Shown here: positions 8,285 to 59,443 of the stretch, one piece after another
Layout of the letters: each line of letters opens with the position of its first letter
How positions within the stretch are numbered: the first letter of the stretch is position 1
Assembly (NCBI GenBank): GCA_964521295.1
Contig: CAZFRF010000001.1
Coordinates: 774,738 to 838,737, forward strand
Direction: 5' to 3'
Source of the DNA: an uncultured Gammaproteobacteria bacterium
GTDB lineage: Bacteria > Patescibacteriota > Microgenomatia > Levybacterales > UBA12049
DNA: 64,000 nucleotides
Translations under genes and position numbers: made by a program
Notes under the pieces: model-generated
Told to the model about the DNA's origin: nothing
Database searches by the model: none
Seen by the model: only the letters and a program-made list of their open reading frames with translations

Positions 8285-8550
8285 CAGTTAGGATTTTTGT
8301 TTTAGGTTTTGTTCAAGGGGTAGGATTTAGGCGCTTTATTAGAAAAAACGCCCAGAAGTTAGGTATTAAGGGTTGGGTTAGAAATACATCAGATGGAAGA
8401 GTGGAAATAGTTGCTCAAGGAGCTAAAGAGCAAATTGAGGAACTTAAAAAGATTGCAGAGAAGGGAACTATCTTTTCTGATGTAAAAGGAATTGTTGTAG
8501 ATAATTTAGAAGAGTCTGAGGTTTTTGAAGGTTTTGAATTACGATTTTGA
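8281..8550 (+). CDS. acyP: acylphosphatase
   Basis: 'VLGFVQGVGFRRF' and 'GWVRNTSDGRVEIVAQG' acylphosphatase signatures 1 and 2; 89 aa. Confidence 0.8.
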   Translation: MTVRIFVLGFVQGVGFRRFIRKNAQKLGIKGWVRNTSDGRVEIVAQGAKEQIEELKKIAEKGTIFSDVKGIVVDNLEESEVFEGFELRF

Positions 8551-9654
8551 TTTATTAGAGAAAAGATAAGCTGCAATAAAAGTTACAATTGGTACAGCTA
8601 AGAGTAACCCCATGCTTCCTGCAATAGTTTTAATTATCTCATCTGCCAGGATTTCATTGTTAAAGATTACCCAGTAAGGTATTTTACTAGGGTTAAGCGC
8701 AAGGAAAATAAAGATAGCGAACGCACTTCCTGCATAGGCTAAGATAAGGGTATTAACCAAAGAGGCAATGTGTTCTTTTCCAACTTTAAAACCTTTGTCA
8801 AAAAGCGTAACTAAGTCATACTTAGGATTTGCCTCTTTTAGTTCCTGAATGGTTGCTGCTTGAGTCGTAGTTATATCATTCAATGCTCCTAGCGTGCCAA
8901 TGATAATTCCGCTCAAAAATAAACCTTTAATATTGATAAAGCTAGTTTGGCCAAATTGGAGCATAAATGAGTCTTCGTCTCCTAAGCCGGTTATAGAATT
9001 TAAGTTCATTGCAAGAATTGCAAAACCTGCTGTTAAAAATAATGCAATAAGTGTTGAAAAAAGCGCAACTGTTGTTTTCTTAGATACTCCATGCGCTAAA
9101 TAAATCGAAGTTGTAAGAATAAAGATAGAGCCAATTAGAGTATATTGTAGGGGATCATTGCCTTTGAGGATGTTTGGGATTATAAAGACTATAATTGTAC
9201 CAAGACTTACAAGCATGCCTAGGATTGAGCCAAGACCTTTAAGACCAGCTATCAAAACTACGGTTAGGAAAAATATGCCTATGAAGAAAAAGAGCATATT
9301 TAATCTGTAAAAGTCATAAACAGAATATTGAGTTTGTCCATTGGGGTAGGTGGTTTTTGCAACAACTATTGTTTGCCCTTTTTTAATTAATTGATCTTTA
9401 TTTATTTGAGTTTGACTTCCATTTTGAATAACAGTAAATTTTCCAGATTTCGAGCCATCGTTTATTTTTACTCTTAGAGTTTGAAAATAAGCAGTAAAGT
9501 TTTCTGTCTTTTTCTGTCCCTCATCAATGATTTCAACAACATTTGCAATGTAAAAAATTTGTTTTGGCGCTTGAAATTGTTTCTCTTGCGCAAAAGAGGG
9601 TTTGACAGTGATTAAGAGAAGGAGAAGGGCAAGTAGTAGGACTTTTATTTTCAT
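8539..9654 (-). CDS. YibE/F-like polytopic membrane protein with N-terminal signal and periplasmic domain
   Basis: Signal peptide 'MKIKVLLLALLLLLITVKPSFA', ~100-aa soluble domain then 6-7 TM helices; family call from memory. Confidence 0.4.
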   Translation of the reverse strand: MKIKVLLLALLLLLITVKPSFAQEKQFQAPKQIFYIANVVEIIDEGQKKTENFTAYFQTLRVKINDGSKSGKFTVIQNGSQTQINKDQLIKKGQTIVVAKTTYPNGQTQYSVYDFYRLNMLFFFIGIFFLTVVLIAGLKGLGSILGMLVSLGTIIVFIIPNILKGNDPLQYTLIGSIFILTTSIYLAHGVSKKTTVALFSTLIALFLTAGFAILAMNLNSITGLGDEDSFMLQFGQTSFINIKGLFLSGIIIGTLGALNDITTTQAATIQELKEANPKYDLVTLFDKGFKVGKEHIASLVNTLILAYAGSAFAIFIFLALNPSKIPYWVIFNNEILADEIIKTIAGSMGLLLAVPIVTFIAAYLFSNKSKS

Positions 9655-9684: not shown

Positions 9685-9733
9685 TTGACAAATGCAAATA
9701 ACTTGCATATAATATGCAAATAATTCGCATTTG
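9685..9733 (+). promoter_or_regulatory. consensus sigma70 promoter (TTGACA-17-TATAAT) embedded in a 45-bp imperfect palindrome (candidate repressor operator)
   Basis: -35 TTGACA 9685-9690, 17-nt spacer, -10 TATAAT 9708-9713; arms 'caaatgcaaataacttgcatat' / 'atatgcaaataattcgcatttg' (19/22 complementary) centred on the -10 and overlapping ATG 9731. Confidence 0.55.
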
Positions 9734-10645
9734 TATATGATTAAAACAGAATTAAGTTCAGTATTAAAAGATACAGCAGGTTTGGCTCTTCAGGGCGGAA
9801 TTTTTGCGCCTGAGACTCCTTCTGGAATAGATCTATCTCCATCTTTACAGGTAATGGAAAAAAGATTAGTTGATGGTTTAAGAGAAAATGGTAGAGCAGT
9901 ATATGGATTAGATAATCCAGAGGGAATGGATTTTACAATGGCATTAGGTCCTTATGCAAAATTAATTTTGGTTTTTAAGCAACGCAGGGAAACTTTACCA
10001 ACTCCCGTGACAGCATTTGGAACTATTGCTCCAGACTCAAATTATTTATCAGGTCAATTAAGATTAGCATTTATGGCAAGATATAGTGGAGGAGCATTTC
10101 AGGTTCCCTGGGAATATGATCCAGATAATACATTAGTTAAGCCTTCTACAATTGATACTTATTTATCTGCGGTTAATGAATTAGGCTCAGTAGGAGACCA
10201 TGAGCCCTCTCGTCCAGTTTCAGTTGCAGATCCTAGGCATTTACTTACGGCAATGAGTGAGTTTAATTTAGGATCAGTTGCATCTTCGCAGATTAACTCT
10301 GTAGATGTAACTCAAAGGCCACATGTAGGCGATGTGTGGGAAGCGAATCGTGGAATGTTTCCAATTATTTCAGCTCAAGAAATGGGTAATTTAGAAAACG
10401 ATTTAGTATGGGCGCCATTTACAGTTACAAAAAAATATTCTAGATCTGATAGTTTGCCATTTGGAGTCATGTTAAAACCAGAAAATCTTGATTTAGAAGC
10501 ATTAGGTAGGGGAAGAATTGTACCAGCTAAAGCAAATATTCCTGGTTCTTTGGAGATGATTCAGCAATTAGGTTTTGCAACTCTTCTTACCAAGGGCAAT
10601 GCCGTTGATAATTTTAAAAGAATCCTAGAAAGGAGAGTTGTTTAA
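9731..10645 (+). CDS. hypothetical protein (304 aa), Ala/Gly/Pro-rich, no family recognised
   Basis: First gene of cassette; composition and GC (~38-40%) above flanking genes; acidic, Lys-poor. Confidence 0.55.
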   Translation: MYMIKTELSSVLKDTAGLALQGGIFAPETPSGIDLSPSLQVMEKRLVDGLRENGRAVYGLDNPEGMDFTMALGPYAKLILVFKQRRETLPTPVTAFGTIAPDSNYLSGQLRLAFMARYSGGAFQVPWEYDPDNTLVKPSTIDTYLSAVNELGSVGDHEPSRPVSVADPRHLLTAMSEFNLGSVASSQINSVDVTQRPHVGDVWEANRGMFPIISAQEMGNLENDLVWAPFTVTKKYSRSDSLPFGVMLKPENLDLEALGRGRIVPAKANIPGSLEMIQQLGFATLLTKGNAVDNFKRILERRVV

Positions 10646-20082: not shown

Positions 20083-20110
20083 TTGACATCCTCTTAGTAT
20101 TAAATATAAT
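20083..20110 (+). promoter_or_regulatory. promoter TTGACA-16-TATAAT, 7 nt upstream of ATG 20118 (leaderless)
   Basis: TTGACA 20083-20088, TATAAT 20105-20110. Confidence 0.45.
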
Positions 20111-20117
20111 TACCCTC

Positions 20118-20522
20118 ATGACACCAGATAATGAAAAAAAAGTTGGAAAAGTTCCAGTAGATGAAAAGGTTAGGATAATTCAGGAAAGAATACAGCCAGT
20201 TATAGTTAGAGAAGAGCAGGTTCAGGCTTATTCAAGCGGTGGATTAAGGACTGGTTTCGAGGTCTGTCAAGTAGCTGGGGCTGGAGAATCATTCGTAAGG
20301 TATTCATGGGAAAGAGGATATAGATCTGCAGGTACATATATTCTGGAAGATGCAATATTACAGCCTGGTTATGTTGGGCTATATATTAGAAATATTGATA
20401 ACGTTGGTTTAGATAATTCTAAGGTTGCAACCCACTCGGATTGGAGTAGGTTAAGAAGGGCAGTGAAGGGGCGTTTGCGTCATGCTGGTTTTAGTCAACA
20501 AATGCCTGGGTTTAGATTTTAG
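20118..20522 (+). CDS. hypothetical protein (134 aa), Arg/Gly-rich, GC-elevated
   Basis: ORF with leaderless promoter; no family recognised. Confidence 0.4.
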   Translation: MTPDNEKKVGKVPVDEKVRIIQERIQPVIVREEQVQAYSSGGLRTGFEVCQVAGAGESFVRYSWERGYRSAGTYILEDAILQPGYVGLYIRNIDNVGLDNSKVATHSDWSRLRRAVKGRLRHAGFSQQMPGFRF

Positions 20523-21222: not shown

Positions 21223-21295
21223 TGGGCCCGAAGTTTACCCGGTTGAACGCCTCATTTGCAATGAGGAGGTAGGGAGTTCGACTCTCCTCGGGTCC
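21223..21295 (+). tRNA. tRNA-Ala (anticodon UGC)
   Basis: Manual fold: acceptor gggcccg/cgggtcc with G3:U70 Ala identity pair, D-stem gttt/gaac, anticodon stem cctca/tgagg, loop 'tttgcaa' (anticodon tgc), T-arm gggag-ttcgact-ctcct; CCA not encoded. Confidence 0.85.
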
Positions 21296-21389
21296 ACAAG
21301 TGTTTTATTTATTTGCGCGTAGCGCTTTCCAGTATGCTCTGGACGCTACCCGCAAATAAGTAAGAGTTGGCTCTTTAAAAAGTGAAGAG

Positions 21390-24640
<3,251 letters not shown>

Positions 24641-24698
24641 ATTAAATTTTTCTTATCTTCACCTTTTAGAGGGCCAAATTTACTTAATTGAAATTTTT

Positions 24699-24812
24699 CC
24701 CGGTGTTTTTAGCGAAGCGGCACCACCTCTTCCCATTCCGAACAGAGAAGTGAAACGCTTCAGCGCCTACGATACTGAGCATGGGCTCGTGGACAATAGG
24801 TCAATGCCGGGA
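24699..24812 (+). rRNA. rrf: 5S ribosomal RNA
   Basis: 'ccaccucuucccauuccgaacagagaagugaaacgcuucagcgccuacgauacug' 5S loop B/C-helix III consensus; helix I cccggug/...gccggg; T-run after. Confidence 0.8.
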
Positions 24813-24842
24813 TTTTTTATGGTAAAGTGACACGTCCTATAG

Positions 24843-24871
24843 TTGACAAATTAGCCTCAAAAGACTATAAT
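24843..24871 (+). promoter_or_regulatory. perfect consensus promoter TTGACA-17-TATAAT, 8 nt upstream of ATG 24880 (leaderless)
   Basis: TTGACA 24843-24848; TATAAT 24866-24871. Confidence 0.5.
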
Positions 24872-24879
24872 TATCGTTT

Positions 24880-25620
24880 ATGGAAGCACGAAGAAGACCT
24901 GATGCGTCACACATTATTCAGACGAATGCAATTTTGAATGGATTAACTCCTGAGGTGGTTACGGGAAAAGATCTAAATCATTTTGTGGTTGCCGTTAGAG
25001 ATGAGATCTCTGCGCAATTGGCCGAGAGTGGTTTTAGACAAACTGAAATAGCTAGAATGCTTGGAAAAGGATGTAGCTCTTCTGTTTCTACAGGGATAAG
25101 ACGAGCTTTATCTAGAAGATTTGTAGTAGATGGGGCGCCACGACCAAGTGATGTGCCTACAGTTTATTTGCCCATTGCTCATTTAGGGGGACCAGAAGTG
25201 AATTTTGAAGCAATTGTTGAACAGAGAAAGAAAAGAGAGCTTAGAAAAGAAAAAGCTAGACAAAACAAGGAAAAAATATTGCAAGCCCGTGAGAAAAGAA
25301 GGCAAGAGGCAATAGTAAATGAAGCCTTTGTCATGGTTACTATTCCAATAGTTGCTGAGCATTATGGGGTAGAGCCTGAAGCTATTATTTCTGAAAAAAG
25401 ACCGAAAGTATTAGTTCATCCAAGACAAGCAATCTTATATATTCTTTCTAAAGAAACCACTTTAAGCATGAAGCAAATAGCGGAATTAGTTGGAAAAAGT
25501 GACCATACTGTTGTTTTGCATGCAATCGAAAGAACAGAGGCTCATCTCGCTAATGATGAGCATTTCCAAAAAAGAATGGATAAGTTAATTGAGGAAATAA
25601 GACAAGCAGCTTCTAGCTAA
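24880..25620 (+). CDS. DnaA domain IV-only (DnaA C-terminal HTH) protein with Arg/Lys-rich coiled-coil linker
   Basis: C-terminus 'RPKVLVHPRQAILYILSKETTLSMKQIAELVGKSDHTVVLHAIERTE' aligns with DnaA box-binding domain 'ARPRQIAMYLAKELTxxSLPEIGxxFGGRDHTTVLHACRKIE'; no AAA+ motifs; GC and Arg content atypical for locus. Confidence 0.6.
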   Translation: MEARRRPDASHIIQTNAILNGLTPEVVTGKDLNHFVVAVRDEISAQLAESGFRQTEIARMLGKGCSSSVSTGIRRALSRRFVVDGAPRPSDVPTVYLPIAHLGGPEVNFEAIVEQRKKRELRKEKARQNKEKILQAREKRRQEAIVNEAFVMVTIPIVAEHYGVEPEAIISEKRPKVLVHPRQAILYILSKETTLSMKQIAELVGKSDHTVVLHAIERTEAHLANDEHFQKRMDKLIEEIRQAASS

Positions 25621-25642
25621 AATTTGTGCTATATTTAGATTA

Positions 25643-27379
25643 ATGTTATCTAAAAAAGTACTGATTGGTTTTATCCCTGTTGTTTTAATAATTCTTCTGG
25701 CTTCATTTTTACGTTTTATTTGGGTAGATAAGGTCCCTAACGCTGTTGGAGGAGATGAGATTGTATATCTAGTTACAGCCAAGGCTTCATTTTTAACAGG
25801 CCATGATATTTTTCAAAAATGGTCACCCATAAACGGTTTATTTTTTAAGTATCCTAAAGGCGAAACTCAAGCAGAGCTTCCTTATATTATTGATTCATTC
25901 TTTGTCGGGCCAATGCCTTTTTCTCTTTTAATAGCACATCTACCTACGGCTATTATGAGTACTTTAATGGCATTATTTGTCTATTTAGTTACTAAAGAGC
26001 TATTGGGAAGGAGAGCGGGTATTTTTGCAGGTTTAATAGCTGCAGTAAATCCTTGGTTTATATATATTGGCAGAACTGCCTATGAGGGAACTCCAGCTAT
26101 GCTTTTTTTCTTGGTTGGGTTTTGGGTTCTTCTTAAAACAAAAGGGTGGAGGATTCTTCTTTCATTTCCCTTTTTTGTTTTGGCGTTTTATTCTTATATA
26201 GCGACTAAGCTTATTTTCTTGCCTTTAATTTTAGTATTTATTGCTTATACGTATCTTTATATTACAAATAAGAAGTATTTTAAGCAGTATTTAGTGTTAT
26301 TCTTGCTGTGTATTGGTTTAGTTGGATTCTTCTTTGTTTCTTTGAAGATGAATCCATCTACTGCAAGGCTTTCTGAAATCCTAACTCCCTTTGATCCAGC
26401 AATTACTAATGAGGTAAATGCTATTAGAAAGACATCTATTTATAATCCCTTAACTGAAATCTTAACTAATAAGTATACGGTGTTTGCGAATATTCTGTTT
26501 ACAAAAACTTTGAAAAGTTTTGCCGCTGATTATTTATTTGTTAATGGAGATGAGTTTTTCTCAATATGGAGGCATGGTATGTTTTATTATATTGACGCTC
26601 TATTTATGTTACTTGGTCTACTTTTTATGTTCAGTAAAAAAAGACCTGTTTTTAGTTTGTTTTCTTTACTTATTTTAATAGGAATTATTCCACAAGTGTT
26701 TCATAAGGCTGATACAGTTAATTTTGTAATTCATATGACAATGTCAATTGTTTTTATGGTTATATTGATAGGTTACGGAATCTCCGAAACGATAGAATAT
26801 TTTAAAAATAAAAAAGTAAAGCTTTTTGCATCGCTTATAATTATGGCTTTATATGTTATTTCTGTAGTTAATTTTTTCAATATATATATTTTTTGGAGTT
26901 CGCTCCAAGGGTATTTTGATTTTAAGATAAGAACATTGTCTTCATACGCGGTTAGAGCAGAACAAAAAGGACAACAGGTCTATGTTTACTCCAACGCCTC
27001 GTTTGATTTTTTTAAGAAATATATGTTTTATTCTAATGTCTACACTAAAGATTCAGCACAAACTATAGCTAATAATTTAAATAATGATAAATATACATTT
27101 GGTAATGTTACTTTTGTTTCGTGTAATAAGCCTGTGCCATTTGAGAAAACTAATAACGTAGTAATTTTTGATAATCAATGTGGTCCAGGACTTGTGTCCG
27201 GAAGTCATTTGAGTATCGCTTTTCTTAAGGACGGAGGAGAAGTGTTTCAAATATATAATGATAAAGTTTGCATAGGCGCAGGGTTAAGTAGGTATGCAAG
27301 TGGAATTAAATTAGCAGATTTTAATATGGAATCGTTGTCAAATAAAACTTTTTGTGAGAAATTTATTACTTCTCTTTAA
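25643..27379 (+). CDS. GT-C fold glycosyltransferase, GT39/GT83 (PMT/ArnT)-like
   Basis: 11-13 TM; first periplasmic loop 'GGDEIVYL' (DE motif) as in PMT/ArnT family; C-terminal soluble domain. Confidence 0.65.
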   Translation: MLSKKVLIGFIPVVLIILLASFLRFIWVDKVPNAVGGDEIVYLVTAKASFLTGHDIFQKWSPINGLFFKYPKGETQAELPYIIDSFFVGPMPFSLLIAHLPTAIMSTLMALFVYLVTKELLGRRAGIFAGLIAAVNPWFIYIGRTAYEGTPAMLFFLVGFWVLLKTKGWRILLSFPFFVLAFYSYIATKLIFLPLILVFIAYTYLYITNKKYFKQYLVLFLLCIGLVGFFFVSLKMNPSTARLSEILTPFDPAITNEVNAIRKTSIYNPLTEILTNKYTVFANILFTKTLKSFAADYLFVNGDEFFSIWRHGMFYYIDALFMLLGLLFMFSKKRPVFSLFSLLILIGIIPQVFHKADTVNFVIHMTMSIVFMVILIGYGISETIEYFKNKKVKLFASLIIMALYVISVVNFFNIYIFWSSLQGYFDFKIRTLSSYAVRAEQKGQQVYVYSNASFDFFKKYMFYSNVYTKDSAQTIANNLNNDKYTFGNVTFVSCNKPVPFEKTNNVVIFDNQCGPGLVSGSHLSIAFLKDGGEVFQIYNDKVCIGAGLSRYASGIKLADFNMESLSNKTFCEKFITSL

Positions 27380-28097: not shown

Positions 28098-30203
28098 CTA
28101 GTGGAATTTTAGAGTTGAAATAATATTATCAAATAGTCTTAAGTTATCTGAGTTGGCTGGATGGACTACGGCTTTTATTAAGTCATTTTCATAAAATAAG
28201 TAAAAAAGATAGGTGGATTCATTGTTAAATATTTTTACATAAGCAAAAGACGTATTAGGAATTTCAGCTTTACCTTCTTTAATTAGGGGTCCATAGGCTG
28301 ATTTATCGGTTGAAATTATTGATTCATAGTTTGGCGCTGATTTTAGTGCAATGTGTTCTAAATAAATACTTAATCCAGTTTTAGGATTAGTTAAAGTTAG
28401 ATTATCCTTTTCTTCTGTAACTGTTAATTCTGTAGGGTAGGTTAAGCTAAATTTAGAGTTATTTTGGCTTTGTAGGTTTAAAATATTTTTTATAATTTCT
28501 ATTTGAGAGTTAGGGAATTTTTCAAATAGCGTTTTATATTTAAGTTGATTATTAATTATTTTGTGACTCGGACTAATTGGTTTTTGACTAATCTTAAAAG
28601 TGATACCATTGTCGATTAGAAAATAATCTCCTAATTTACAGTAATTTATATTGCAAGTTTTAAATATGTCAGGCGCATAATTTAAAATATAGCTTTTATC
28701 AATATAGAAGCTTTTATTAGGATTTTCTTTAATTAATCTAATAAGAATATCTGTTTGATTATTTTTATTTGATTTTAGGATTATTTGTTCTAAGCTAGTT
28801 GATGTTTGAATGTTTTGACCTTTGGAAATATTTTGCCTATACCACTTAAAATCGTAATAAAAATTACCTATTAATGGAAAAATATCTGGTCGGGTTTTAC
28901 TTACGAATTTAGCGTATGCAGTTTGACCTTCAAATATATTCCCTCCGCCAATTAGAATTGCATTATTAGCTATCCCTGAATAGAGATTTGCAATATACGT
29001 TGAGGTAATATTATTGCTGGCTCTATTTAAATAATTGAACCAAAAAAATAAGGGGAGTAGGGAGATGGTGATGGCAAAGAAAATTAATAGCTTTTCAGGA
29101 AGTTGGGGTATTTTGGAATAAGTTTTACTCGCTAAGTTATTGATTGCAACGCCAAAGAATAATGCTAAAGCAATAAAACTAGGCAAGAACCAATATTCTT
29201 GATTTCCGGAGATATATAAAATTCCCAAAATTGAACTCGTTAACAAGATTGAAATTAGCATTAGTAGTAATGATGTTCTATTTTTTAAGCTAAGCATGCC
29301 AATTGCTGATAATAGTAGGAGTAATGGATTGAACTGAATTAATAGTATTTCAAAATAGTGTGATAGGGTTTTTAATAAGATTTTAAAGTTAAGCGTAAAT
29401 CCAATTATTTCTGTGCTTTCGCTTTTTGAAACAAAACCCTTCCCGCTCATTACATCCCAAATTGAGCTTAGGGTTGTAGGATTGCCAAAATTTAAATAAG
29501 GATTTTGTTGTGCGCGTAGAGGTAGGTATAGGTATAGAAGAGTCGTAATAATAAGTATTATGAGAATATTTGAAAGTATGAATTTTTTATTTTTAATTAA
29601 TACATCTTTAAAAAATAAAGCAAAAATAGCTATTGGGATTAAAGAGAAGACTATGATTGGATTAAGCCCGGATCCAATTCCCAAAACAATGCTAATGATG
29701 AGTATCATTTTTTTTATTTTTTGATTAAATTTATAATCATTTTTAATGATTAATTCTCTTGTTTTAAGTAGTAAGAATAAGATTAAAAATATAAAGGTAA
29801 TTGTCAGGGGGAAGGATTCGATGTTAATTGTGCCAGACCAAAATTGATAAGAAAAAGCAACAGAAACTGTGGTGATAAATGCAGCTAGATTAGTGAATTG
29901 ATTAATATTTTTGCCACATAAGAGTTTAACACTCAAAAATATTAAAGTTAAAGTTATACATGAGGCAAGTATAGATATTAAATATAAATTTGTATTTAGA
30001 GAAAAAGGGAGTTTGGTAAATAAATATCCAATGATTAAGTAAGTAGGATAGCCTGGAGGCAAAGGAATTGCCAGATCAACAACTGCAGCAGAGAATAATC
30101 CAGAATCGGCAAATCCGTTTTCTCTTGAAAACGTAAGTAGATAGATAGCAAGAGGGATAAATACGCTAGCAATTAAATAAATATTTATTTTTATATTTCT
30201 CAT
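28098..30203 (-). CDS. DUF2723/TMEM260-like polytopic membrane protein (putative GT-C glycosyltransferase)
   Basis: 701 aa, ~12 TM N-terminal half with 'FADSGLFSAAVVDLAIPLPPGYPTYL' loop typical of DUF2723, Asn-rich C-terminal soluble half. Confidence 0.45.
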   Translation of the reverse strand: MRNIKINIYLIASVFIPLAIYLLTFSRENGFADSGLFSAAVVDLAIPLPPGYPTYLIIGYLFTKLPFSLNTNLYLISILASCITLTLIFLSVKLLCGKNINQFTNLAAFITTVSVAFSYQFWSGTINIESFPLTITFIFLILFLLLKTRELIIKNDYKFNQKIKKMILIISIVLGIGSGLNPIIVFSLIPIAIFALFFKDVLIKNKKFILSNILIILIITTLLYLYLPLRAQQNPYLNFGNPTTLSSIWDVMSGKGFVSKSESTEIIGFTLNFKILLKTLSHYFEILLIQFNPLLLLLSAIGMLSLKNRTSLLLMLISILLTSSILGILYISGNQEYWFLPSFIALALFFGVAINNLASKTYSKIPQLPEKLLIFFAITISLLPLFFWFNYLNRASNNITSTYIANLYSGIANNAILIGGGNIFEGQTAYAKFVSKTRPDIFPLIGNFYYDFKWYRQNISKGQNIQTSTSLEQIILKSNKNNQTDILIRLIKENPNKSFYIDKSYILNYAPDIFKTCNINYCKLGDYFLIDNGITFKISQKPISPSHKIINNQLKYKTLFEKFPNSQIEIIKNILNLQSQNNSKFSLTYPTELTVTEEKDNLTLTNPKTGLSIYLEHIALKSAPNYESIISTDKSAYGPLIKEGKAEIPNTSFAYVKIFNNESTYLFYLFYENDLIKAVVHPANSDNLRLFDNIISTLKFH

Positions 30204-32737: not shown

Positions 32738-33539
32738 AAAAAACAAAACAAAAAAAACAACAGAGGAAGTAAAATTAGATACAATTCAAGCGGTTGATGG
32801 AACGGGTAGATCAATTCATTTTTCGCCAAAAGTAATGGGTCTTTTGGCAGATGAGATAGCTAAAACAGTAGTTAATAGGTTGCCAAGTTTTAGAAGGTCT
32901 AGGAAACCAAAAGAAACAAAAAAAATAGAAAATGGTATATTTCTAGATACCTCGGCCATAATTGACGGGAGAATTTTTGAAGTTATTAATTTAGGTCTTT
33001 TAAGAGGGGAAATAGTAATCCTTGAAAGTATTCTTTTAGAACTAAAACACATTGCTGACTCTAAAGATTTGGTTAAAAGAGAGCGAGGAAGAAAAGGACT
33101 CATTTTACTTGAAAAGGTCAAGAAGGTTAAAGAAATTAAATTTACAGTTATTTCTTCAGAAAAGGAAAAGGGAATGGGATTGGATAGGCTTGCTGAGGTT
33201 GACGAGAGATTAATTTTTGCTGCCAAACATAATAAAGCAAGGCTTATTACTTGCGACTATAATCTTGAGAAAAAGGCGAGTATTAATGGCGTTAATGCAA
33301 TTAATGTAAATACCTTAGCGAATGTATTAAAGGTTATTGCTGTTCCAGGTGAGACTTTGCATATTAAAATTCAACATAAGGGCAAAGATATTACACAAGG
33401 GGTTGGTTACCTTGATGATGGAACAATGATTGTTGTTGAAAATGCTAGTTTAGATATTGGTAAGGAGTTAAATGTTGTAGTATCCAGGGTTATTCAAACT
33501 GCGGCTGGTAGAATATTGTTTTCAAAAAAAATCCTTTAG
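32730..33539 (+). CDS. PIN + TRAM domain protein (YacL-like)
   Basis: PIN core 'LDTSAIIDGRI', C-terminal TRAM 'GETLHIKIQHKGKDITQGVGYLDDGTMIVVENAS'; conserved radA-yacL synteny. Confidence 0.75.
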   Translation: MAKKNKTKKTTEEVKLDTIQAVDGTGRSIHFSPKVMGLLADEIAKTVVNRLPSFRRSRKPKETKKIENGIFLDTSAIIDGRIFEVINLGLLRGEIVILESILLELKHIADSKDLVKRERGRKGLILLEKVKKVKEIKFTVISSEKEKGMGLDRLAEVDERLIFAAKHNKARLITCDYNLEKKASINGVNAINVNTLANVLKVIAVPGETLHIKIQHKGKDITQGVGYLDDGTMIVVENASLDIGKELNVVVSRVIQTAAGRILFSKKIL

Positions 33540-34444
33540 TTTCTCCTTTTTTTAACCAAGTAGGCAATTATTGAGACAATAACAATTACACTTATTACTA
33601 CTATAAAATTAATACTTCCTTGGGTAAAATAAGTAACTTTTGCGTTAAGATTTGTATCTGATTTGCCAAAGTGTAAATTAAGCTCAGCAGTATAAAAGCC
33701 AGGGATAAGAAAATTTGAATCTCTTTTTATATTTATCTCATAACGCCTAATGCTTTCAGGTAAGGCATCTAAAGAATTCTCATTTAAAATTCCCTTAGCG
33801 ATTTGATTACCAAAAATGTCTTTTATTTTAACTATTCCATAAGGGACAACATGAACATTGCCGTTGTTTTGAAATCTAAGACTAAAGCTTTCGGGATTAT
33901 CTACGCCATCTCTACTAGGTTTAAAAGATAATATTTTTCCATCTTCTATTTCGTTACCAGTCGAAGCTCTAACAAAAAGAAGGCTAGATAATACGGCCTT
34001 GATAACGACTTGTTTATCTGTTTTTGGTTGAATTATTTCAGCTAGAACACTTGCATAGTGTCCTCCTTTAGTAATTCTATTTTTATCAATAAAAACTTTT
34101 ATTGTTTTAGATTCATTAGGAGAGAGTTGTATGTTCTTGTTTTCAAAAGAAATCCAAGAAGATAGGCTATATTTATAATTTGCGGCATCTTTACCTTCTA
34201 AAAAACTTAATCTATAGCTGTCTTCAAGTTCAGTAAAATCTTTAACACTGAGTAGGAGATTGATGTCGGAGTCAGTGTTATTGGTATAGGTGAGTGCATA
34301 TTCTGCTGGATCTGAAGCTAGATCTAGATGTATGATTGAAGGCGTTACGCTAATTCCTTTTTGAGATTGTGCAAATGAGTTTTTTACAGCAAATGAAAAA
34401 AATAGTATTAATACAACTGAAGTAAAGACTGACTTTTTGAGCAT
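33536..34444 (-). CDS. DUF916/CscA-like cell-surface protein, paralog 1 (signal peptide + C-terminal TM anchor)
   Basis: 'AQSQKGISVTPSIIHLDL...' beta-sandwich, C-terminal 'VVISVIVIVSIIAYLVKKRRN' anchor; paralogous to 35099..36142 and 36139..37185. Confidence 0.45.
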   Translation of the reverse strand: MLKKSVFTSVVLILFFSFAVKNSFAQSQKGISVTPSIIHLDLASDPAEYALTYTNNTDSDINLLLSVKDFTELEDSYRLSFLEGKDAANYKYSLSSWISFENKNIQLSPNESKTIKVFIDKNRITKGGHYASVLAEIIQPKTDKQVVIKAVLSSLLFVRASTGNEIEDGKILSFKPSRDGVDNPESFSLRFQNNGNVHVVPYGIVKIKDIFGNQIAKGILNENSLDALPESIRRYEINIKRDSNFLIPGFYTAELNLHFGKSDTNLNAKVTYFTQGSINFIVVISVIVIVSIIAYLVKKRRN

Positions 34445-39415: not shown

Positions 39416-39835
39416 TTATATTGGCAAATAGAATGCACTAAGTCCAAACAAAGGATGTAAATATTCAAACGTACAAACTTGGGGAATAGAGTTTTTGTTA
39501 CATAAAACTGCCATTTGTGACTGTGCAAATGTAAGCTCATTTGTGCGGTAATTAATTAAAGTTTTTAAGGCTGCTTTCATGTCATTTTCAGTTGGATAGA
39601 GAACATTAAGCGAACTTAAGGAAATACCTCTCAAAAAGTCCTTAGCTAGGGAAGGACTTATTTTTTCATAGATTTGTCTATATGTTTCAATTACATTTAA
39701 ATAGCCTGTGTAGACAAAGTATTTTTCCTGCGCAAAGAATCTAAAATACGCACTTGCTTGAGCGTGTTTTTCATGAGCTCTATCTACAAAAGCGTAGAGT
39801 AGTTCAGTTGTAACAAATACTTTTTTACTTGTCAT
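39416..39835 (-). CDS. hypothetical protein, possible PIN-like toxin partner
   Basis: 139 aa immediately downstream (8-nt gap) of HTH gene; N-terminal 'KVFVTTELLYAFVD' weakly PIN-like; call by context only. Confidence 0.3.
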   Translation of the reverse strand: MTSKKVFVTTELLYAFVDRAHEKHAQASAYFRFFAQEKYFVYTGYLNVIETYRQIYEKISPSLAKDFLRGISLSSLNVLYPTENDMKAALKTLINYRTNELTFAQSQMAVLCNKNSIPQVCTFEYLHPLFGLSAFYLPI

Positions 39836-39842
39836 AATCTAG

Positions 39843-40118
39843 CTACAAATTAAGCGATGCGCCCCTTCCTTGTAGCTGAAAGAAGGGATCAATGTCTGTA
39901 AAAGTTTTAGCTGGAGATCTAGTTTCGGTTGCAGTTTTCATTTTAGGAATTCTAGGAGCGAACTCGCGATTTAGTTCTTGAAGCTGAGATTCTTTAATAC
40001 GAACGTTGCCTCCAACTTTAATAGCCTTTAATCTACCTTCGCGAATATAGCGTCTAACAGTTAGGGGATGAACCTTTAGAATAAATGCTGCTTGGTTAAT
40101 ATTAAACAAATTTTCCAT
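39843..40118 (-). CDS. excisionase/MerR-type HTH (HTH_17) DNA-binding protein, antitoxin-like
   Basis: 'AAFILKVHPLTVRRYIREGRLKAIKVGGNVRIKESQLQE' matches HTH_17 excisionase-family fold. Confidence 0.55.
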   Translation of the reverse strand: MENLFNINQAAFILKVHPLTVRRYIREGRLKAIKVGGNVRIKESQLQELNREFAPRIPKMKTATETRSPAKTFTDIDPFFQLQGRGASLNL

Positions 40119-40261
40119 GTTTTTAAATTTTTAAGGCTAATTTTTCACAAAGGCCTTATACAATTTTATACAATATTATGCAATTTTATGCAAGATATCA
40201 GAATATTTGACGGCTGGGTTTAAACTTAGTGTAATTAATATTACGAAGTAATATTAATTAA

Positions 40262-43200
40262 ATGCTTAACCTGCCCATAATCAATTCTAGAAAAATTTTC
40301 ACGCTACTAGCAATAGTTATTTTAGCCATAGTTTTCTTAAGTCTAAAACCATTTGTTTTTGCTGCTACGGGTATTCCACGAACAATTAATTTCCAAGGTA
40401 AATTAGTAAACAACTCTTCAGGAATTAATGTTACAAATTCAACTTACTCAGTAGTTTTCACGCTTTACGATAAAGATTCAGGGGGAACAGCTTTGTGGAC
40501 TGAGACTCAAAGTGTTACAACTGTTGATGGAATTTTCAGGGTTGCCTTGGGTTCAGTAACCCCAATCCCTTCTAATTTTAACTTTAACTGGGATGGTTTG
40601 TATCTGGGTATGAAAGTTGGAGCAGATTCAGAAATGACTCCAAGAATTCAAATGGCTTCAGTTCCATTTGCATTCAATTCCCAAAAAGTAGCAGGGTTAA
40701 CTGTTCAGGATACATCAGGTAATGCTTCAACTTCTGGAACTCTACAGATTGCAAATGCAAAAACCATTAACCTGGGTACACAAAACCTTACCTTGACCAC
40801 AACAGGAGATACGACAATCACATTGCCTACAACGGGAACTTTACTTACAAATTCTGCAACAGCAGTACAGACAATAACCTCTACTCAGGGAACTGGCACG
40901 GTTTTAGCTGTCGCTGATTCATCGGCACTTTCTGGAGCATTAACTGGATTTGCTGTTAATTTAACCTCTTCGACCAATAGTCAGAATAAGACTGGTCTTA
41001 GTTTTGATCTTTCAGGTGGTACTGGTGCGACATATTACGATATATTAGGTACTGGTAGTACATGGAGTATTACTAGAGCTGGTGTATTAACTGTTTCTTC
41101 ATGTACGGGTTGTGGAGGAGGAGGCGCAAGTTATTGGAATTTAGTTTCTGGTAATGGAGTTTCAAATGGTGGATACATAACACCAATTAATTCAACCGCA
41201 GATTTCTTTTTGGGTGGTCAGGCAACAACATCTGCAAAATTTGGAGTGCTAAATTTAAATTCTGGAATTCCAATCGCAACAATTGCTGGTAATTTTGTTA
41301 TTCAGCCTCAACTGGGTGGAGGAGGAAGGTTAGGAATTGGAACTGATCCATCTGTCTACAATTATCTAATTGATGCAACTAAAGATATTAACGATATTTC
41401 AACCGTTAATGTTTGGAATCCAAATTTAGGAAGTGCTGCTTGGGCTGGATTTAGAGCAGGTGGCTCACAGTCTAGTGGCGATAACATTCAACTTCTTTTT
41501 ACTGGTAGTCAGCAAGGAGGCAGTGCATTAAATAGAATTGCTAGCTCAGCATTACTTGAATCAGGCTCAGGCGCAAGTGGAGGATTAATTTTAATAACTG
41601 ATCATTCTTCTGCACCGATAATTTTCGCAACTGGCGGAAATGCTTTAACCAATGAGAGATTAAGGATTACTTCTACGGGTGTCTTAAGTTTGGGTAGTAC
41701 TTCCGGAGAATCACAGCTAAGCGTTACTAGGCCTTTGTCGTGGGGCGCTACTGGTAAATCCTTAGCTATACTTAATCAAATTGAAAATCAGGATATTTTC
41801 ACAGCTTCTGCTTCAGGAACTCCAGTTATAACAATTTCTAGGGCTGGAGGATTGGGAATCGGTGGAGGACCAGGCTCAAGTCCAAATTACGGAACAGGCT
41901 CAAATTGTCTTTTAGGAGGAACTACTATTTCCTGGGGGTCTTGTGCGGCTGGTTCTGGAGATGGAATAGATAGATGGCAAGTAAACAATGGAGTGTTATC
42001 TCCTGGAAACCAAACCTTGGATTTTGCTGTTGGCGGAACAGCTTCGACATCTGCAAAATTATTAGTGTCTCAGTTGGGAACTAATGCAATAGCTTCAGTT
42101 GCTGGTTCAACTTCTTTTTCAGCATTAGTAGTTGATAATAGTGGTACAGGAAGTTTATTTACCGCATCTTCTTCTGGATTAACGAGATTTGTAATTAACA
42201 AAAATGGCGGAGTTGGTATTAATACAGCATCAATTGGTGATGGCCTAGAGCTAGATGTTAATGGAAGCGCAAGAATTGGAACAACTGCAGTTGCGGCTCC
42301 AGATGATATTATGAAAACTGATACTACAGACTTTACAGTTAGTGGGTATAGCGCAACTACTGTAACCACGAGCGGAGATAAGATAACTTTGCCTGTAAAT
42401 CAAATAGCCAGCGCAAAAGTTCCAGCAGCAGGACCAAATACAACATATGCGGTTGCAACCTGGTCAGCTGCTTTAACCAGAGCAGATGGAAAAGTGTTAG
42501 TTATAACAGGTGATTCCGCCAATACATCAGGTAATGTAAGAAAAACAACCATTTATGAATCTAGATCTAATACTTTTTTAGCAGGTCCTTCTTTAGTTAA
42601 TACACCACATGCCTCAAATGCTGCTGTATTTCAGCTTGCTAATGGTACTTTCTTAGTTGCTTTGGGAAATGGATCGCAAATTTATAATCAAGCTGGTGTT
42701 AATGGTACGGGAAGCTTTACCCAAGGAGCTCCTTTAATGGCTAATCCGGCATCTCCAAATACAAATTCAGTTGTGGGTGCAGGTGCCCGTTTTATTAGAA
42801 GGTTTGATGGCTCATTAATTTTAATTTTAGGTGGGAATAGTACTATGACAAATATTTATAATCCAACTAATAATCAATTTATTTATGGACCTAGTTTAAC
42901 AACAGGTGTTGCTTCAGGAAGTGCAGTATTCCAAAGACCAGATGGGAAATGGATTGTTGTCGTTGGTGGAGGAACCAGTACTACTAATATATATGATCCA
43001 TCGCTTGGAAATGGTGGTGCTTTTACCGCAGGACCAGCTCTTGCTGCTGGAAATGCAAATTATGGAGCTAATGTTTTTCAATTATCAGATGGTAGATTCA
43101 TGTTGATTAACGGTGGAGGAACGAATACTACTAATATATACAATCCTATTTCTAATACTTTTACATCTGGTCCAACTTTAACAACAAATGTTGGTTCGGG

Positions 43201-46200
43201 TTCTCAAACAATCCAAAGATCAGATGGTAAATGGTTGGTAGTGGCTGGTGGAGGATCAAAAGCTGTAAATTTATATGATCCAACAACAAATACATTTAGT
43301 CAGCCTGCAAATTCTGATTTAACAGCTCCAGCTGGAGTTGGCGCAGTTACATTCCAGAGAGAAGATGGAAAATATATAGTAGTTCATGGAGGAAATTATA
43401 ACGTTGGCGTAAACGTTGTCTCGACAACTCTATATGATGCAGGTTGGCAAACTAGTGGTATTTGGATTTCTGAGGATATAAATAATACAAAAATATCAAC
43501 TTATTCAGCTATATCATGGGTTTCAAATCCACAAATAGCTGCAACGCCTTCGTCAAACGTTACATTTCAGGTTAAAACCTCTCCTACCCAGGGAGGATTA
43601 GCTACAGCTACTTGGAATACTATTGCGAATACAGGTGATTTAATTCAAGCTGTAGCTGGAGCGCAATGGATAAAGATTCAAGCTTTGTTTGCAGCTCAAA
43701 TTCCTCAACCATATACAGTAAGTATTCCTAATAATATTCAATCAGGAGTTTGGCCAGCTGAGGGAGGAGTTTCGTACTTTAGGTATGCATTAGAACCTAC
43801 TTTATTCAGAATTAGAATTATTAATCCAATTGCGGGTTATGGAGGTTGGGTTTCAACAGATTTATATAATGGTAGAAATGAAGCAACTCAAGGTGCTGTA
43901 CTGGATAATGTTGTAATTGATAATACAAATAGATTAACTCTGGCTACAAATAGATTTAATGGTTCTGCTTCAGCGTCTGCGGGTGTAATTATTGCTTCTG
44001 CTTCAGCAAATTTGGGTGGAGCTGCTGGAGCTGGTTCAGTTACCATAACCTTGCCAAGTGGTAAGTTATTAGTAATACTAGGTCAAGCTAAAAACTCTAC
44101 TGTAATTTACGATCCTATTACAGGTCAATCTACTGCAGGTCCAATTTTGTCATCCGCAACAACAACAACTGGTACGTTTGCTTTCCAAAGACCTGATGGT
44201 AATTTTGTTGTAGTTATAGGAGGAACAGCAATTACTAATATCTATAATGTTTCCTCAAATACTTTTTCTGTCGGTCCGTCTTTGTCGGGAAATGCAGGAA
44301 CTGGAGCCCATGCGATTCAAAGGCCAGATGGAAAGTTTGTTATCTTTAGAGGAGGTACAACTGTATTTACAAATATTTATGATCCAATTTCGAATTCAAT
44401 GGTTGATGGACCACAGGTTACAGGAGGCTCTGTTGGTGCTGGAGCATTTTCAATTAGAAGATCTGATGGAAGATATTTAACAATTTTAGGAAATAATACT
44501 GCTGTAGTAAATTTATATGATCCATATCAAAATTCCTTTACCTTAGGAGCTGCTGTATCAGGTGCAGTAAGTACAAATGGTAATGGAATTATGCTTCCTA
44601 ATGGTAGAGTTTGGGCAACTAGAACAACAACTACTTCGGAAACTATTAATCCATTAGTAACAGCTGAGCCTGTAGCTGCCTCAGGTTATTCAGTTGCAGG
44701 TCCTGCTATTACTTCAATTGGTGTTGGTTCTCATATGATTCCAATGGCTGATGGCAAGGTAATGCTTTTTACTGGAAATTCTGTTTCATATAACGTTTAT
44801 AACCCTGCAGCTAATACAATGGTTGTATCATCAACTGGTACAGTTGCCGTTGGTGCATTACCACAAACCGTGGGAGATGGAGCTCAGTCAATTCAGCTTC
44901 CGAATGGTAAGTTTTTAGTTATCTCTGGAAACAATACAACAAATACTATGATTGTTGATACGGGTTTTGTTATGAATGGCACCTATATTTCTGAGCCTAT
45001 TTATGCACCTACATTGAGTAGTGCTACTTCACTTCTATGGAAGAATGTCGGCGGAGGAAATGTTAATGCAAAATATAGGACAGCAGCATCAAGTACCGCT
45101 TTAACAACTACTCAATGGGTAGACTTAGAAAAAGATGATGGAGCGCTTGCACCAAATCCAGGCGATCAATGGGTACAGATAAGACTTGATTTGCAAGCCT
45201 ATCTGCCTAAACAGCCTTATGAAAAAGTAAATGTTACCTCTAATACTTCTGCTGGAGGATTTAGATACTGGCAAGCTCCATCGGCTCCAATATTGCAATA
45301 TTGGAGATTAGTTAATAATACGGATCCGAATTTATTGGTTATGACTAGTGGTGGACAAAGACAGTTTAGATTTCAGGCTGATGGTCAAGCATTTACTGCT
45401 TTAAATGGAGCTTGGAATACGGGTGGAGCAGATTTGGCAGAAAGATATACTTCTAAAGAGGTTCTCGAAGCAGGAGAGGTGGTTGTTGGTGATAAGTTTA
45501 ATGCTCAAAATGTTATAAGAGCGACGACTCCGTATCAGTCTAATATTATGGGGGTGGTTTCAACTCAGCCAGGTTTTGTAGCTGGTGCATATACTCCTGA
45601 TTCATATCCAATTGCTTTAGTTGGACGTGTTCCCGTTAAGATTTCAAATGAAAATGGTGAAGTTAGATCAGGTGATTATTTAACTTCTGCATCAATTCCT
45701 GGATATGCAATGAAAGCAACAGTTGCTGGAAGAGTTTTGGGAACTGCTTTGGAAGATTTCGATAGCACTAAAGAAACAGTTGAATGTCCAACTGATGGTT
45801 ATGGCAGTATTGGTACAACGAGATGTGGAGTTATTACTGCCTTTATTAATTTAACAAGCTATACAGGTGCTGACATTGAGACATTGATGGCTGATAGAAA
45901 CTTCGCATTAGGAATTTCTCAGACAGGACTTCAGTCAGACTCATTCTTAAATGGAGTTGATGAAAAAGATAGAAAGATAGTTGAGTTCTTAAAATCTCTT
46001 AAAGAAGAAAACGGTGTGGAGTCTAATTCGCAAATGTTTACAGGAAGACTTTCTGCTGTTAAAATTTTAAGCTCAGATATAGTTGCAGATTTAATTACAG
46101 CAAAAACAATTAGAGCAGATAGAATTGAAGGCTTGGAAATTTTAACGAATCAAATTTCAAGCTTAAATTCGAGATTAAATACCCTAACTAGTACGGGCTC

Positions 46201-57524: not shown

Positions 57525-57707
57525 TTAATACCTTGCAGGTAGCTTAGTACGTGGTTAAATATGGACAAATAATTAACCGATAAATTCTAGGTAGAGTATA
57601 GCAATTTTAGAGGCAAAAGTCAAGTTTAGAGGGATATTTTTAGCCTCAAAAATCAAATTTTAGGCACAAAAAATCCCTTATAAAAAATAAGGGATTTTAA
57701 GTATATT

Positions 57708-58264: not shown

Positions 58265-59443
58265 CTACTTTAAGCTATAATCTCTAGCGACTAAATTGTG
58301 TGGCGAAGCATTCCAAATTCCTTTGGAATAATATAATGTGCCTGTTGATCGAGTTGTATGATCATTATCTTCTAAATTATCGCTTACAAGCGTAGGGTAA
58401 GAATACCAAGTATCCATTGTTGTTCTTGCTGCTTGAGTTTGAGGAAAAGCTGCAATTAGTTTTGGTTCGTCCCAATTTATTCCATCAGCTGAAGTTGTTT
58501 GTGCGAATCCAGCATTAGTTTCAAAAATACAAAGATATTTGCCTAAATCTTTATTAAAACTAACACTTGGTAAAGCAGAGTATCCAGCATTATCGATATT
58601 GCTTGGTACAGGGATGACAGGTTTTAAGTCAGTGGTTTGTCCGGCTATAAATCCTTGATTGGTATAGAATTCTAGGCTTGGTTCAATTGTGCCATTGTTT
58701 ACTCTTGCTCTTGCTAAGTAAATTTGATCAGGATGCTGTTCTGTTTTTTGTGCACTCCAATCAATATGATAAATATATAAATAATCTCCAATTTGAATTG
58801 CGTCTGGTTGACCTGCTCCAGATACTCTTTCTCCAGGATTGGCAATGTCATCGCCTTTGATAATAACTTGCTTGTTTATCCAGCTTAAGCCTCCATCAAA
58901 AGATTCAGCACTCGCAACAGAGGCTCTAAATCCACTTCCATCAGTTGGGGTTTTCCATTCTTCTTGATGTAAGAGGGCAGTCAAATGTTTTTCATTTTCC
59001 TGATCTAAACTAAAAACAGCTGTGATTCCGGTATAGTTATAGCCAGGATTTTGCTCAGGAGAATATACTTCTTGTATTTTTTCTGGGTTAACAAGATTAT
59101 TTTCAATAGCAGACTTTAAACTTTGATCATCGGTATCAATTGCAAAAGTAGAGACTTTTGATGAAATAAAGTATCTTCTTGTCCCGTTACTAAAGGTAAT
59201 GTAAGGCATATGTCCGTCAGGAGTCCATAAGAGTTTTTGGTCAATTAATGAAAGATTATGTTCTGTTCCTAAAGTTATAAAGTCAGGTTTTTCTTGGGGC
59301 ACTTCAGTAGATGGGGAAGGTAACTGTGTTTCAGATTGCGCTACTACTACTTCAGGAAAAGAAGCTCCTCCCATTGCGATTGAGGCAGATAATATTCCTG
59401 TAGCTACTTTTCTTCTGAGTGTTGTTTCAATTAACCTTGACAT
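58265..59443 (-). CDS. secreted BNR/Asp-box repeat beta-propeller protein (sialidase/glycosyl-hydrolase-like)
   Basis: Asp-box-like 'SFDGGLSW' and 'SADGINWDE'; signal peptide; leaderless promoter TTGCAA(59478-59473)-17-TATAAT(59455-59450) 6 nt before ATG. Confidence 0.5.
   Translation of the reverse strand: MSRLIETTLRRKVATGILSASIAMGGASFPEVVVAQSETQLPSPSTEVPQEKPDFITLGTEHNLSLIDQKLLWTPDGHMPYITFSNGTRRYFISSKVSTFAIDTDDQSLKSAIENNLVNPEKIQEVYSPEQNPGYNYTGITAVFSLDQENEKHLTALLHQEEWKTPTDGSGFRASVASAESFDGGLSWINKQVIIKGDDIANPGERVSGAGQPDAIQIGDYLYIYHIDWSAQKTEQHPDQIYLARARVNNGTIEPSLEFYTNQGFIAGQTTDLKPVIPVPSNIDNAGYSALPSVSFNKDLGKYLCIFETNAGFAQTTSADGINWDEPKLIAAFPQTQAARTTMDTWYSYPTLVSDNLEDNDHTTRSTGTLYYSKGIWNASPHNLVARDYSLK

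Follow-up and report, generated by a model that had tools for sequence, protein, structure and literature searches.

The locus

The window analyzed here is a 64,000-nucleotide stretch of contig CAZFRF010000001.1 (assembly GCA_964521295.1). At positions 24880-25620 on the plus strand, stop codon included, the open reading frame (ORF) call gives a gene for a protein of 246 amino acids (aa). The protein combines two copies of the fold known from the DNA-binding domain IV of the replication initiator DnaA and is called the DnaA-IV protein below. The preferred reading, held tentatively and with slightly less than even confidence, is that of a sequence-specific, autoregulating transcription regulator with two DnaA-IV helix-turn-helix (HTH) domains and neither an ATPase nor an oligomerization module.

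The ATG of the gene lies 67 nt downstream of the 5S rRNA gene (24699-24812, +; Rfam RF00001, 78.8 bits), the last gene of a tRNA-Ala/23S/5S unit. The 5S gene is followed by a run of T (24813-24818, +) that is, from its sequence, the probable 5S terminator. Downstream of the DnaA-IV gene lie the genes for a PMT_2-like glycosyltransferase (25643-27379, +), a methyltransferase, S1, and RadA. The PMT_2 gene has its own conserved extended -10 element, TGTGCTATATT (25625-25635, +), recognized in an alignment of upstream regions. Because this promoter is separate, co-transcription with the DnaA-IV gene is not required. An identical 246-aa protein has been recorded in one NCBI genome, on a 935,984-bp contig, and in two independent SRA (Logan) assemblies, and therefore the gene is not an assembly artefact.

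The initial annotation had described the protein as rich in arginine and its GC content as out of character for the locus. The first description holds, with arginine at 9.3%, second among the 48 window ORFs (z = 2.8). The second does not: the GC content of 38.7% ranks sixth of 48 (z 1.4), the GC content at third codon positions (GC3) is 24.7% (z 0.5), and 18 of the 23 arginine codons are the host-typical AGA. Arginine is still more frequent (10.4%) in a 134-aa protein encoded in the region 20083-20522 (+), which has no Pfam or PADLOC match and whose gene sits just 5' of a NUDIX gene and the rRNA unit.

Domain composition of the protein

The C-terminal domain spans aa 151-246 (25330-25617, +) and is defined by Pfam, PDB, fold, and residue comparisons. 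Residues 156-218 match the Pfam family Bac_DnaA_C (PF08299) with E 6.9e-18 and 64.9 bits, against a gathering cut-off of 31.5. This significant match bears out the initial annotation, which had placed a DnaA-type HTH here and had named the lack of such a match as its refutation; its statement that an AAA+ domain is lacking also stands, as AAA+ families gave no match in profile searches of the 246-aa protein. The significant PDB sequence matches are all DnaA proteins (8btg, 1l8q/2hcb, 1j1v, and 3pvp). The full-length AlphaFold2 (AF2) model has a mean predicted local distance difference test score (pLDDT) of 85, and on 1J1V and 3PVP it reaches template modeling (TM) scores of 0.86-0.88 with a root-mean-square deviation (rmsd) of 1.6 A. 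These two structures are DNA-bound and represent E. coli DnaA 374-467 and the DNA-binding domain of M. tuberculosis DnaA, respectively (PDB).

Of the NCBIfam equivalogs of DnaA, only the final ~95-110 positions align with the protein. The score with TIGR00362 is 63 bits (cut-off 343.9), from profile positions 344-437 of 437 alone, and that with NF001154 is 53.5 bits (cut-off 410). Neither domain III (AAA+) nor the helicase-interaction domain I of DnaA was found in the 246 residues, which give no AAA match. The protein belongs to the Bac_DnaA_C superfamily and is not a DnaA.

In E. coli DnaA, the base-specific contacts are made by R399, P423, D433, H434, T435, and H439 (PMC2533591, PMC7561715). 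The alignment of the C-domain with DnaA is ungapped, window residue n corresponding to E. coli residue n + 225 in the E. coli numbering of this analysis, and it places R174, K198, D208, H209, T210, and H214 at these six positions. Five of the six contact residues are kept, and P423 is replaced by K198. In the aligned C-domains of 13 family members, R, D, H, and T/S mostly persist and P423 never does; the H439 position is Asn or Tyr in the C-domain of every relative, and T436 is V or I in the close ones. Given these changes at P423, H439, and T436, the specificity has probably drifted from the DnaA box.

The same residues bear on an alternative reading, in which the protein modulates replication. 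A free DnaA-type HTH could bind DnaA boxes at oriC, in the dnaA promoter, or at titration sites, compete for or shield them, and tune initiation in the manner of a dominant-negative, 'domain IV only' DnaA. The equivalents of R399, D433, H434, T435, and H439 in the C-domain and its fit to DNA-bound DnaA-IV at 1.6 A speak in favor of this role, whereas the three drifted positions speak against it. With the evidence on promoters, DnaA boxes, and evolutionary rate given below, this role is considered unlikely.

A second DnaA-IV fold, overlooked in the initial annotation, occupies the N-terminal part of the protein at aa ~8-84 (24901-25131, +, for aa 8-84), as found by profile, AF2 fold, and residue comparison. 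The closest relatives, P0002-P0004 (55-57% identical), each have two Bac_DnaA_C stretches in Pfam (94-98 bits), and their N-terminal halves bear the signature GGRDHSTVMHSVRRAL. A profile of ten N-domains, headed by that of the window, gives matches to 3pvp and 1j1v that span the whole domain (E 1.1e-7). For the AF2 model of window aa 1-82 (pLDDT 90; predicted TM score, pTM, 0.80), the six best-supported structural matches are DnaA DNA-binding domains, with TM 0.79-0.85 and rmsd 0.9-1.1 A on 3PVP/1J1V. The same five-helix pattern is present in both halves of the full AF2 model.

At the six base-contact positions, the window N-domain has L32, T55, C65, S66, S67, and T71, and the N-domains of the relatives typically have R, a variable residue, D, H, S, and H. 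The base-contact residues are effectively all lost in the window N-domain, which is probably a module for non-specific DNA contact or for protein contact. In the window strain, DnaA-style base reading looks possible for the C-domain only, judging by these residues. The recognition helices compared are aa 62-72 in the N-domain and aa 205-215 in the C-domain. In all close relatives, the H439 position is occupied by His in the N-domain helix (DHSTVMH) and by Asn in the C-domain helix (DHTITLN). The window strain no longer has the N-domain motif (it reads CSSSVST), and its C-domain helix has become DHTVVLH, with His. This could be a compensatory move of the DnaA-like recognition helix between the domains.

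Between the two domains, a disordered, hypervariable linker at aa 85-108 (25132-25203, +), with pLDDT <50 at 85-105 and only 10-11% identical to that of the closest relatives, is followed by a long E/K/R-rich helix at aa 109-150 (25204-25329, +) that runs into the first helix of the C-domain. In the AF2 model, aa 109-162 form a single long helix. The initial annotation had described a coiled coil here. Residues 113-142 are 63% E/K/R with few hydrophobic positions, and the modeled helix resembles an ER/K single helix more closely than it does a classical coiled coil.

Promoter and candidate operator

The initial annotation had reported a perfect promoter ahead of the gene. A TTGACA-17-TATAAT promoter, matching the consensus at 12/12 positions, is indeed present at 24843-24871, with the -35 hexamer at 24843-24848 and the -10 hexamer at 24866-24871 (both +). 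Between the -10 hexamer and the ATG lie 8 nt, a distance shared by every orthologue, and no Shine-Dalgarno sequence was found upstream of the ATG. The surrounding 19 kb contain just one other 12/12 promoter, TTGACA-16-TATAAT at 20083-20110, which ends 7 nt before the ATG of the 134-aa arginine-rich protein.

The mRNA of the DnaA-IV gene is predicted from this layout to be leaderless or nearly so. The layout claimed in the initial annotation is real, but it is nothing special, being common across the window: a -10-like hexamer 5-9 nt before the start, without a Shine-Dalgarno sequence, is found for 21-23 of the 48 window ORFs. A Shine-Dalgarno sequence (GGAGG) is present in only ~10 of the 48, mostly internal operon genes. 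Examples of the leaderless layout are found at 8539-9654(-), 20118, 20542, 25643, 28098-30203(-), 33536-34444(-), and 58265-59443(-), and many of these ORFs have an extended TGn -10. At the starts of operons, this host appears to use leaderless translation by default.

The promoter overlaps a conserved block, TCCTATAGTTGACAAATTAGCCTCAAAA (24835-24862, +), which is a candidate operator, with CCTATAG 5' of the -35 hexamer and TTAGCCTCA in the spacer. The 28-nt block TCCTATAGTTGACAwwTTAGCyTCAAAA is nearly invariant in seven orthologous loci, whose proteins are only 30-57% identical, and across these loci it takes the form TCCTATAGTT[G/A]ACA[AA/TT]TTAGC[C/T]TCAAA. The sequence 5' of the block, a few bases before the -10 hexamer, and the 8 nt before the ATG are variable. 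At these loci, conservation in the promoters of S1 and PMT_2 is limited to an extended -10. The spacer element TTAGCCTCA (24851-24859, +) matches the DnaA box TTATCCACA at 7/9 positions, and most orthologues have TTAGCTTCA in the spacer, a 6/9 match. This resemblance is a lead and not a test. Two further candidate elements were dropped. An inverted repeat, TATAGT...ACTATA, in the window promoter is not conserved in the orthologues, and TAGTTGMMA, considered as a general extended -35 element, is not enriched (6 against 4.2 expected).

A second copy of the promoter, CCTATAGTTGCAATATTTAGCCTTAATTGTTATAAT followed by 6 nt and an ATG, is located at 59450-59486 (-), 5' of a gene referred to here as gene B (58265-59443, -), which encodes a secreted-looking protein of 392 aa with no Pfam match. 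The gene-B orthologues L107, L108/L109, and L110 have ATCCTATAGTTGACA, 2-3 nt, and TT[AG][AG]nCT[CT]A, with 17-nt spacers. Each related locus has a single copy of the motif ATAGTTGAC, which always lies at the DnaA-IV gene or at a gene-B orthologue. In the window, TTAGCCTYAA occurs 6 times against 0.86 expected, a count reached in 0 of 100 shuffles. Four of these copies are intergenic, compared with an intergenic share of 7.5% of the window, and three copies are on the coding strand, 13-29 nt 5' of an ATG. The third of these, TTAGCCTTAA (40131-40140, -), lies 13-22 nt 5' of the ATG of an unlisted 90-aa HTH_17 gene (39846-40118, -; Pfam E 1.2e-10; PADLOC mad1 E 7e-9).

The HTH_17 protein is excisionase/MerR-like, and its gene lies directly upstream of a 139-aa ORF (39416-39835, -), with which it may form a toxin-antitoxin-like module. 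A DnaA-box-like sequence, TTTTTCACA (40141-40149, +), adjoins the TTAGCCTTAA copy of this gene. The fourth intergenic copy, TTAGCCTCAA (57640-57649, +), lies between two minus-strand genes with no ORF after it, and a strong hairpin plus T-run, AAATCCCTTATAAAAAATAAGGGATTTT, is found within 30 nt after it.

A promoter block common to a second gene points to transcriptional regulation and not to competition for DnaA boxes. The initial annotation had proposed a search for such boxes nearby. A scan of the window for TTWTNCACA gave 6 matches, fewer than the 8.7 expected, and none of them form a cluster close to the gene; this lack of enrichment counts against a replication modulator. The cumulative GC skew rises almost throughout the window and never reverses, and oriC and dnaA lie outside the window. 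Two observations agree with such a modulator: the consensus promoter suggests high expression, and relatives with 4-6 tandem Bac_DnaA_C domains (P0008, P0010) would suit arrays of boxes.

The position of CCTATAG, abutting the -35 hexamer as do the sites of class II activators, raises another alternative, in which the protein acts as an activator like GafY. Here, a DnaA-type HTH bound at promoters would recruit RNA polymerase through regions 3-4 of sigma-70. GafA and GafY act in this way, and both domains of the DnaA-IV protein show weak, sub-threshold similarity to Sigma70_r4_2. However, GafY compensates for a degenerate -35, whereas the target promoters here already have consensus -35 and -10 hexamers. 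Moreover, the protein is not a member of PRK06030, scoring 17.9 bits with NF004688 (PRK06030.1-3) against a cut-off of 136, so it falls outside the PRK06030/GafY sequence family, and no gene for a GafZ-like partner lies nearby. Recruitment of this kind is regarded as quite improbable.

Origin and evolution

The initial annotation had suggested that the gene derives from a mobile element inserted next to the rRNA operon. Comparative synteny contradicts an insertion, as the slot is fixed in nine related loci: the DnaA-IV gene occupies the interval from 5S to PMT_2 in nine distinct loci. The order (23S)-5S-gene-PMT_2-methyltransferase-S1-RadA-PIN/TRAM recurs in L003, L004, L005/6/7, L008, L009, and L010, and the same order is found in the more distant L111; the 5S gene, the PMT_2 gene, or both were confirmed for L003, L004, L005, L008, L009, L010, and L111. 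The RadA of L111 is identical to that of Levybacteria RIFCSPLOWO2_01_FULL_36_13, and the named RadA homologues at 70-76% identity all belong to Candidatus Levybacteria. From these homologues we infer that the window comes from a genome of Candidatus Levybacteria (Microgenomates, within the candidate phyla radiation (CPR)/Patescibacteria).

One relative lacks the gene. In L112, an 863-kb contig that is still more distant (RadA 70% identical), 23S-5S is followed by a minus-strand ORF of 80 aa and then PMT_2, and no family member was found within 21 kb. The 80-aa ORF (L112 1935-2366), of a membrane/coiled-coil type, stands in the place of the DnaA-IV gene. Since the slot is empty in L112, a gain or a loss of the gene took place at precisely this position within the phylum. 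The absence from one Levybacteria relative also weighs against a role in replication.

The slot after 5S appears prone to small insertions. In L005, a Hainich groundwater contig, ~250 extra bases lie between 5S and the promoter block (9686-10000) and hold a 64-aa ORF (9733-9927) with its own promoter-like sequence. Pattern scans of genome contigs gave no relative in a first set of 517 stretches and only L010 in a later set; the window genome is evidently absent from the GTDB representatives. L010 (CAYYJP010000019.1) belongs to a metagenome-assembled genome labeled 'uncultured Gammaproteobacteria bacterium' and carries a Levybacteria-type locus with the same promoter block and DnaA-IV gene, and with PMT_2, S1, and RadA 63-76% identical to those of the window. 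Its label or binning is probably wrong.

Descent from a phage or other mobile element that landed beside the rRNA operon would accord with the short Bac_DnaA_C proteins in phage and plasmid records, with a single weak PHROGs match (E 2e-5) to a family of unknown function, with an allele far more diverged than its flanks, and with the empty slot of L112. On the other side, position and promoter are conserved in the nine related loci, and GC3 and codon use are host-like. No integrase or flanking repeat was found, and PADLOC gave no credible defence-family match for the DnaA-IV protein. No full-length phage, plasmid, or viral relative is known to the searches made: the scan of IMG/VR viral contigs found no relative, and phage and plasmid records gave matches to the C-domain only, with coverage <=45%. 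A mobile origin is already largely refuted and is given almost no credence; the gene is native and lineage-restricted, not an insertion.

The protein changes far more rapidly than its surroundings. Compared with L003, the neighboring proteins are 94-97% identical, except for a TMEM260-like protein (75%), and four neighbors show nonsynonymous divergence (dN) of 0.02-0.03 and synonymous divergence (dS) of 0.6-0.9. The DnaA-IV protein is only 54-59% identical, with an overall dN of 0.33, made up of 0.40 in the N-domain, 0.81 in the linker plus helix, and 0.135 in the C-domain. It evolves 5-30 times faster than its neighbors, a rate unexpected for a partner of the constrained DnaA/oriC system that a replication modulator would be. 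At the DNA level, identity to L003 is 97-100% in the rRNA genes, 35-80% inside the gene, and 85-93% in PMT_2. The linker plus helix of the window allele is nearer to that of the distant P0005 (38-46%) than to those of P0002-4 (10-31%).

Setting the C-domain dN of 0.135 against the neighbor dS of 0.6-0.9 gives a dN/dS of ~0.1-0.2. By these rates, the C-domain is under purifying selection, the N-domain is relaxed or shifting in function, and the linker is evolving at about the neutral rate. A functionless, decaying remnant of a duplicated dnaA could explain the loss of the N-domain contacts in the window strain and a linker dN of 0.8 as high as the dS of the neighbors, but it conflicts with the low dN/dS of the C-domain, with a reading frame that is intact in all relatives, with the conserved N-terminus MxEA[RK]RRP, and with a nearly invariant promoter and a fixed spacing from the -10 hexamer to the ATG. 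Decay is scarcely credible.

Several other features of the window were recorded around this slot. The rRNA unit consists of tRNA-Ala (21224-21297, +), which is the sole tRNA ahead of 23S and is not accompanied by tRNA-Ile, the 23S gene (21401-24645, +), and the 5S gene. No 16S rRNA gene was found upstream within 21 kb (window 1-21400), so the rRNA genes are unlinked. A group I intron at 23984-24243 (+) inside 23S (RF00028, 50.0 bits, exactly the gathering score; E 6e-11) accounts for most of the ~320 surplus bases of the 3245-nt gene. Group I introns are also present in the 23S genes of L005 and L112, in L005 together with a LAGLIDADG ORF. The short ORFs listed within the rRNA genes are spurious. 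The right half of the window resembles a region of cell-surface or secreted proteins; a 2192-aa ORF at 40262-46840 (+) with low Lys+Arg lies near genes for an S8 peptidase/CBM96, a sulfatase/CBM96, and DUF11 surface proteins.

Proposed function

Because it has no ATPase or oligomerization module, the DnaA-IV protein cannot act as a replication initiator. In the mechanism proposed for an autoregulating transcription regulator, the C-domain, with its minor-groove arginine and its D-H-T..H recognition helix kept, would read the 9-bp, DnaA-box-like element TTAGCYTCA. This element is located between the -35 and -10 hexamers of the gene's own consensus leaderless promoter, where a bound protein would block RNA polymerase and thereby exert negative autoregulation. 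This promoter type also drives gene B, at the least, and perhaps the small HTH_17 gene, which together would form a small regulon. We infer that the protein binds the conserved block and represses; repression, rather than activation, is probable, given that the promoter is already perfect and has the element in its spacer. L111 agrees with the regulatory reading: its protein lacks this type of N-domain, and the block is missing both at its own promoter and at that of the gene-B orthologue.

A number of observations weigh against this proposal. The choice between repression and activation is a guess from the position of the motif, and a different factor may bind the block, which could also be a strong-promoter element specific to the clade. 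The resemblance of TTAGCYTCA to a DnaA box has, by estimate, a ~5% likelihood of arising by chance somewhere in a block of this size. Within 64 kb, no more than two or three promoters carry the motif. When metagenomes were scanned for the -35 hexamer plus spacer motif, TTRACAWWTTAGCYTCAAAA, the 96 stretches returned held one family member, L025, which is an already known Hainich orthologue; the rest are chance matches. Among these, the promoter-like match of L081 was discarded, as its ORF is unrelated. Finally, the window strain and L003 have the same block through TCAAA, but their N-domains differ at all base-contact positions; therefore, the recognition helix of the N-domain cannot be what constrains the block.

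A broader form of the regulator reading is more doubtful still. It holds that the protein represents a CPR family of transcription factors that arose from duplicated DNA-binding domains of the initiator and that read DnaA-box-derived operators in the spacers of consensus leaderless sigma-70 promoters. Within this broader form, a protein encoded directly after the single rRNA operon could couple DnaA-box-type recognition, or competition with DnaA, to a small surface-protein regulon, and the DnaA-like recognition helix appears to have changed places between the N- and C-domains from one strain to another.

As a compact case, the locus offers a DNA target that is concrete and open to testing. Should the protein bind the block, the DNA-reading head of the initiator has been recycled as a gene regulator in CPR bacteria. 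If true DnaA boxes are bound instead, the protein is a new type of antagonist of replication initiation. In either case, the annotation 'DnaA' is unfit for such proteins.

Comparison with known systems

To our knowledge, DnaA domain IV is almost always discussed as a part of the replication initiator, and the regulatory repertoire of the genome-reduced CPR bacteria is almost unknown. The domain IV fold is common to both halves of the DnaA-IV protein (TM 0.79-0.88, rmsd 0.9-1.6 A over the two). Unlike DnaA, the protein has no domains I, II, and III, carries domain IV duplicated in tandem, and has P423 replaced. Lacking domains I-III and scoring far below the equivalog cut-offs, it cannot oligomerize on an origin or melt it as DnaA does.

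The only characterized DnaA-like DNA-binding domains outside initiators that we know of are those of GafA and GafY. GafA of Rhodobacter capsulatus and GafY of Caulobacter crescentus are activators of gene transfer agents (GTAs) with an N-terminal DnaA-like DNA-binding domain, which binds and regulates their own and their target promoters (PMC9638019, PMC11150451). They are the precedent for the regulator proposed here. The DnaA-IV protein resembles them in using a DnaA-type HTH outside replication, although its autoregulation is only proposed, from the conservation of the block. GafA and GafY are found in Alphaproteobacteria, have a sigma-like domain or a GafZ partner, and act at promoters with a weak -35. 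The DnaA-IV protein, in contrast, has two DnaA-IV domains and consensus promoters and no GTA context; a sigma-like C-terminal domain, an adjacent GafZ partner, and a GTA regulon were not found at the locus.

Stand-alone Bac_DnaA_C proteins are the closest in overall type, being short and having DnaA-IV as their only recognizable domain, like the window protein; most of them are single-domain. With E <= 0.001 as the limit, the profile search returned 7,672 representatives from the library; among the best 150, ~128 have fewer than 400 aa. Some stand-alone proteins are encoded on alphaproteobacterial plasmids. Such proteins are annotated as 'helix-turn-helix domain-containing protein' or, wrongly, as 'DnaA', and JGI names the relative P0013 'chromosomal replication initiation ATPase DnaA'. 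The full two-domain architecture is found in about a dozen representatives at 50% identity (4 at E < 1e-30), apparently all close relatives. The window family differs from the other stand-alone proteins in its two domains and its fixed slot after 5S.

Proteins with many Bac_DnaA_C copies form a further point of comparison. P0008 (673 aa, 5 repeats) and P0010 (891 aa, 4-6 repeats) share with the window protein several copies of domain IV and the lack of AAA+. They differ from it in that their repeats are far more numerous, an ER/K helix is lacking, and the sequence around the repeats is unrelated. Their architecture could bind arrays of DnaA boxes. The Bac_DnaA_C domain and the numerous, essentially uncharacterized stand-alone proteins that bear it were already known. 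New are the pairing of two domains in tandem through an ER/K connector, the constant position after the 5S gene, and a footprinted promoter that a second gene shares.

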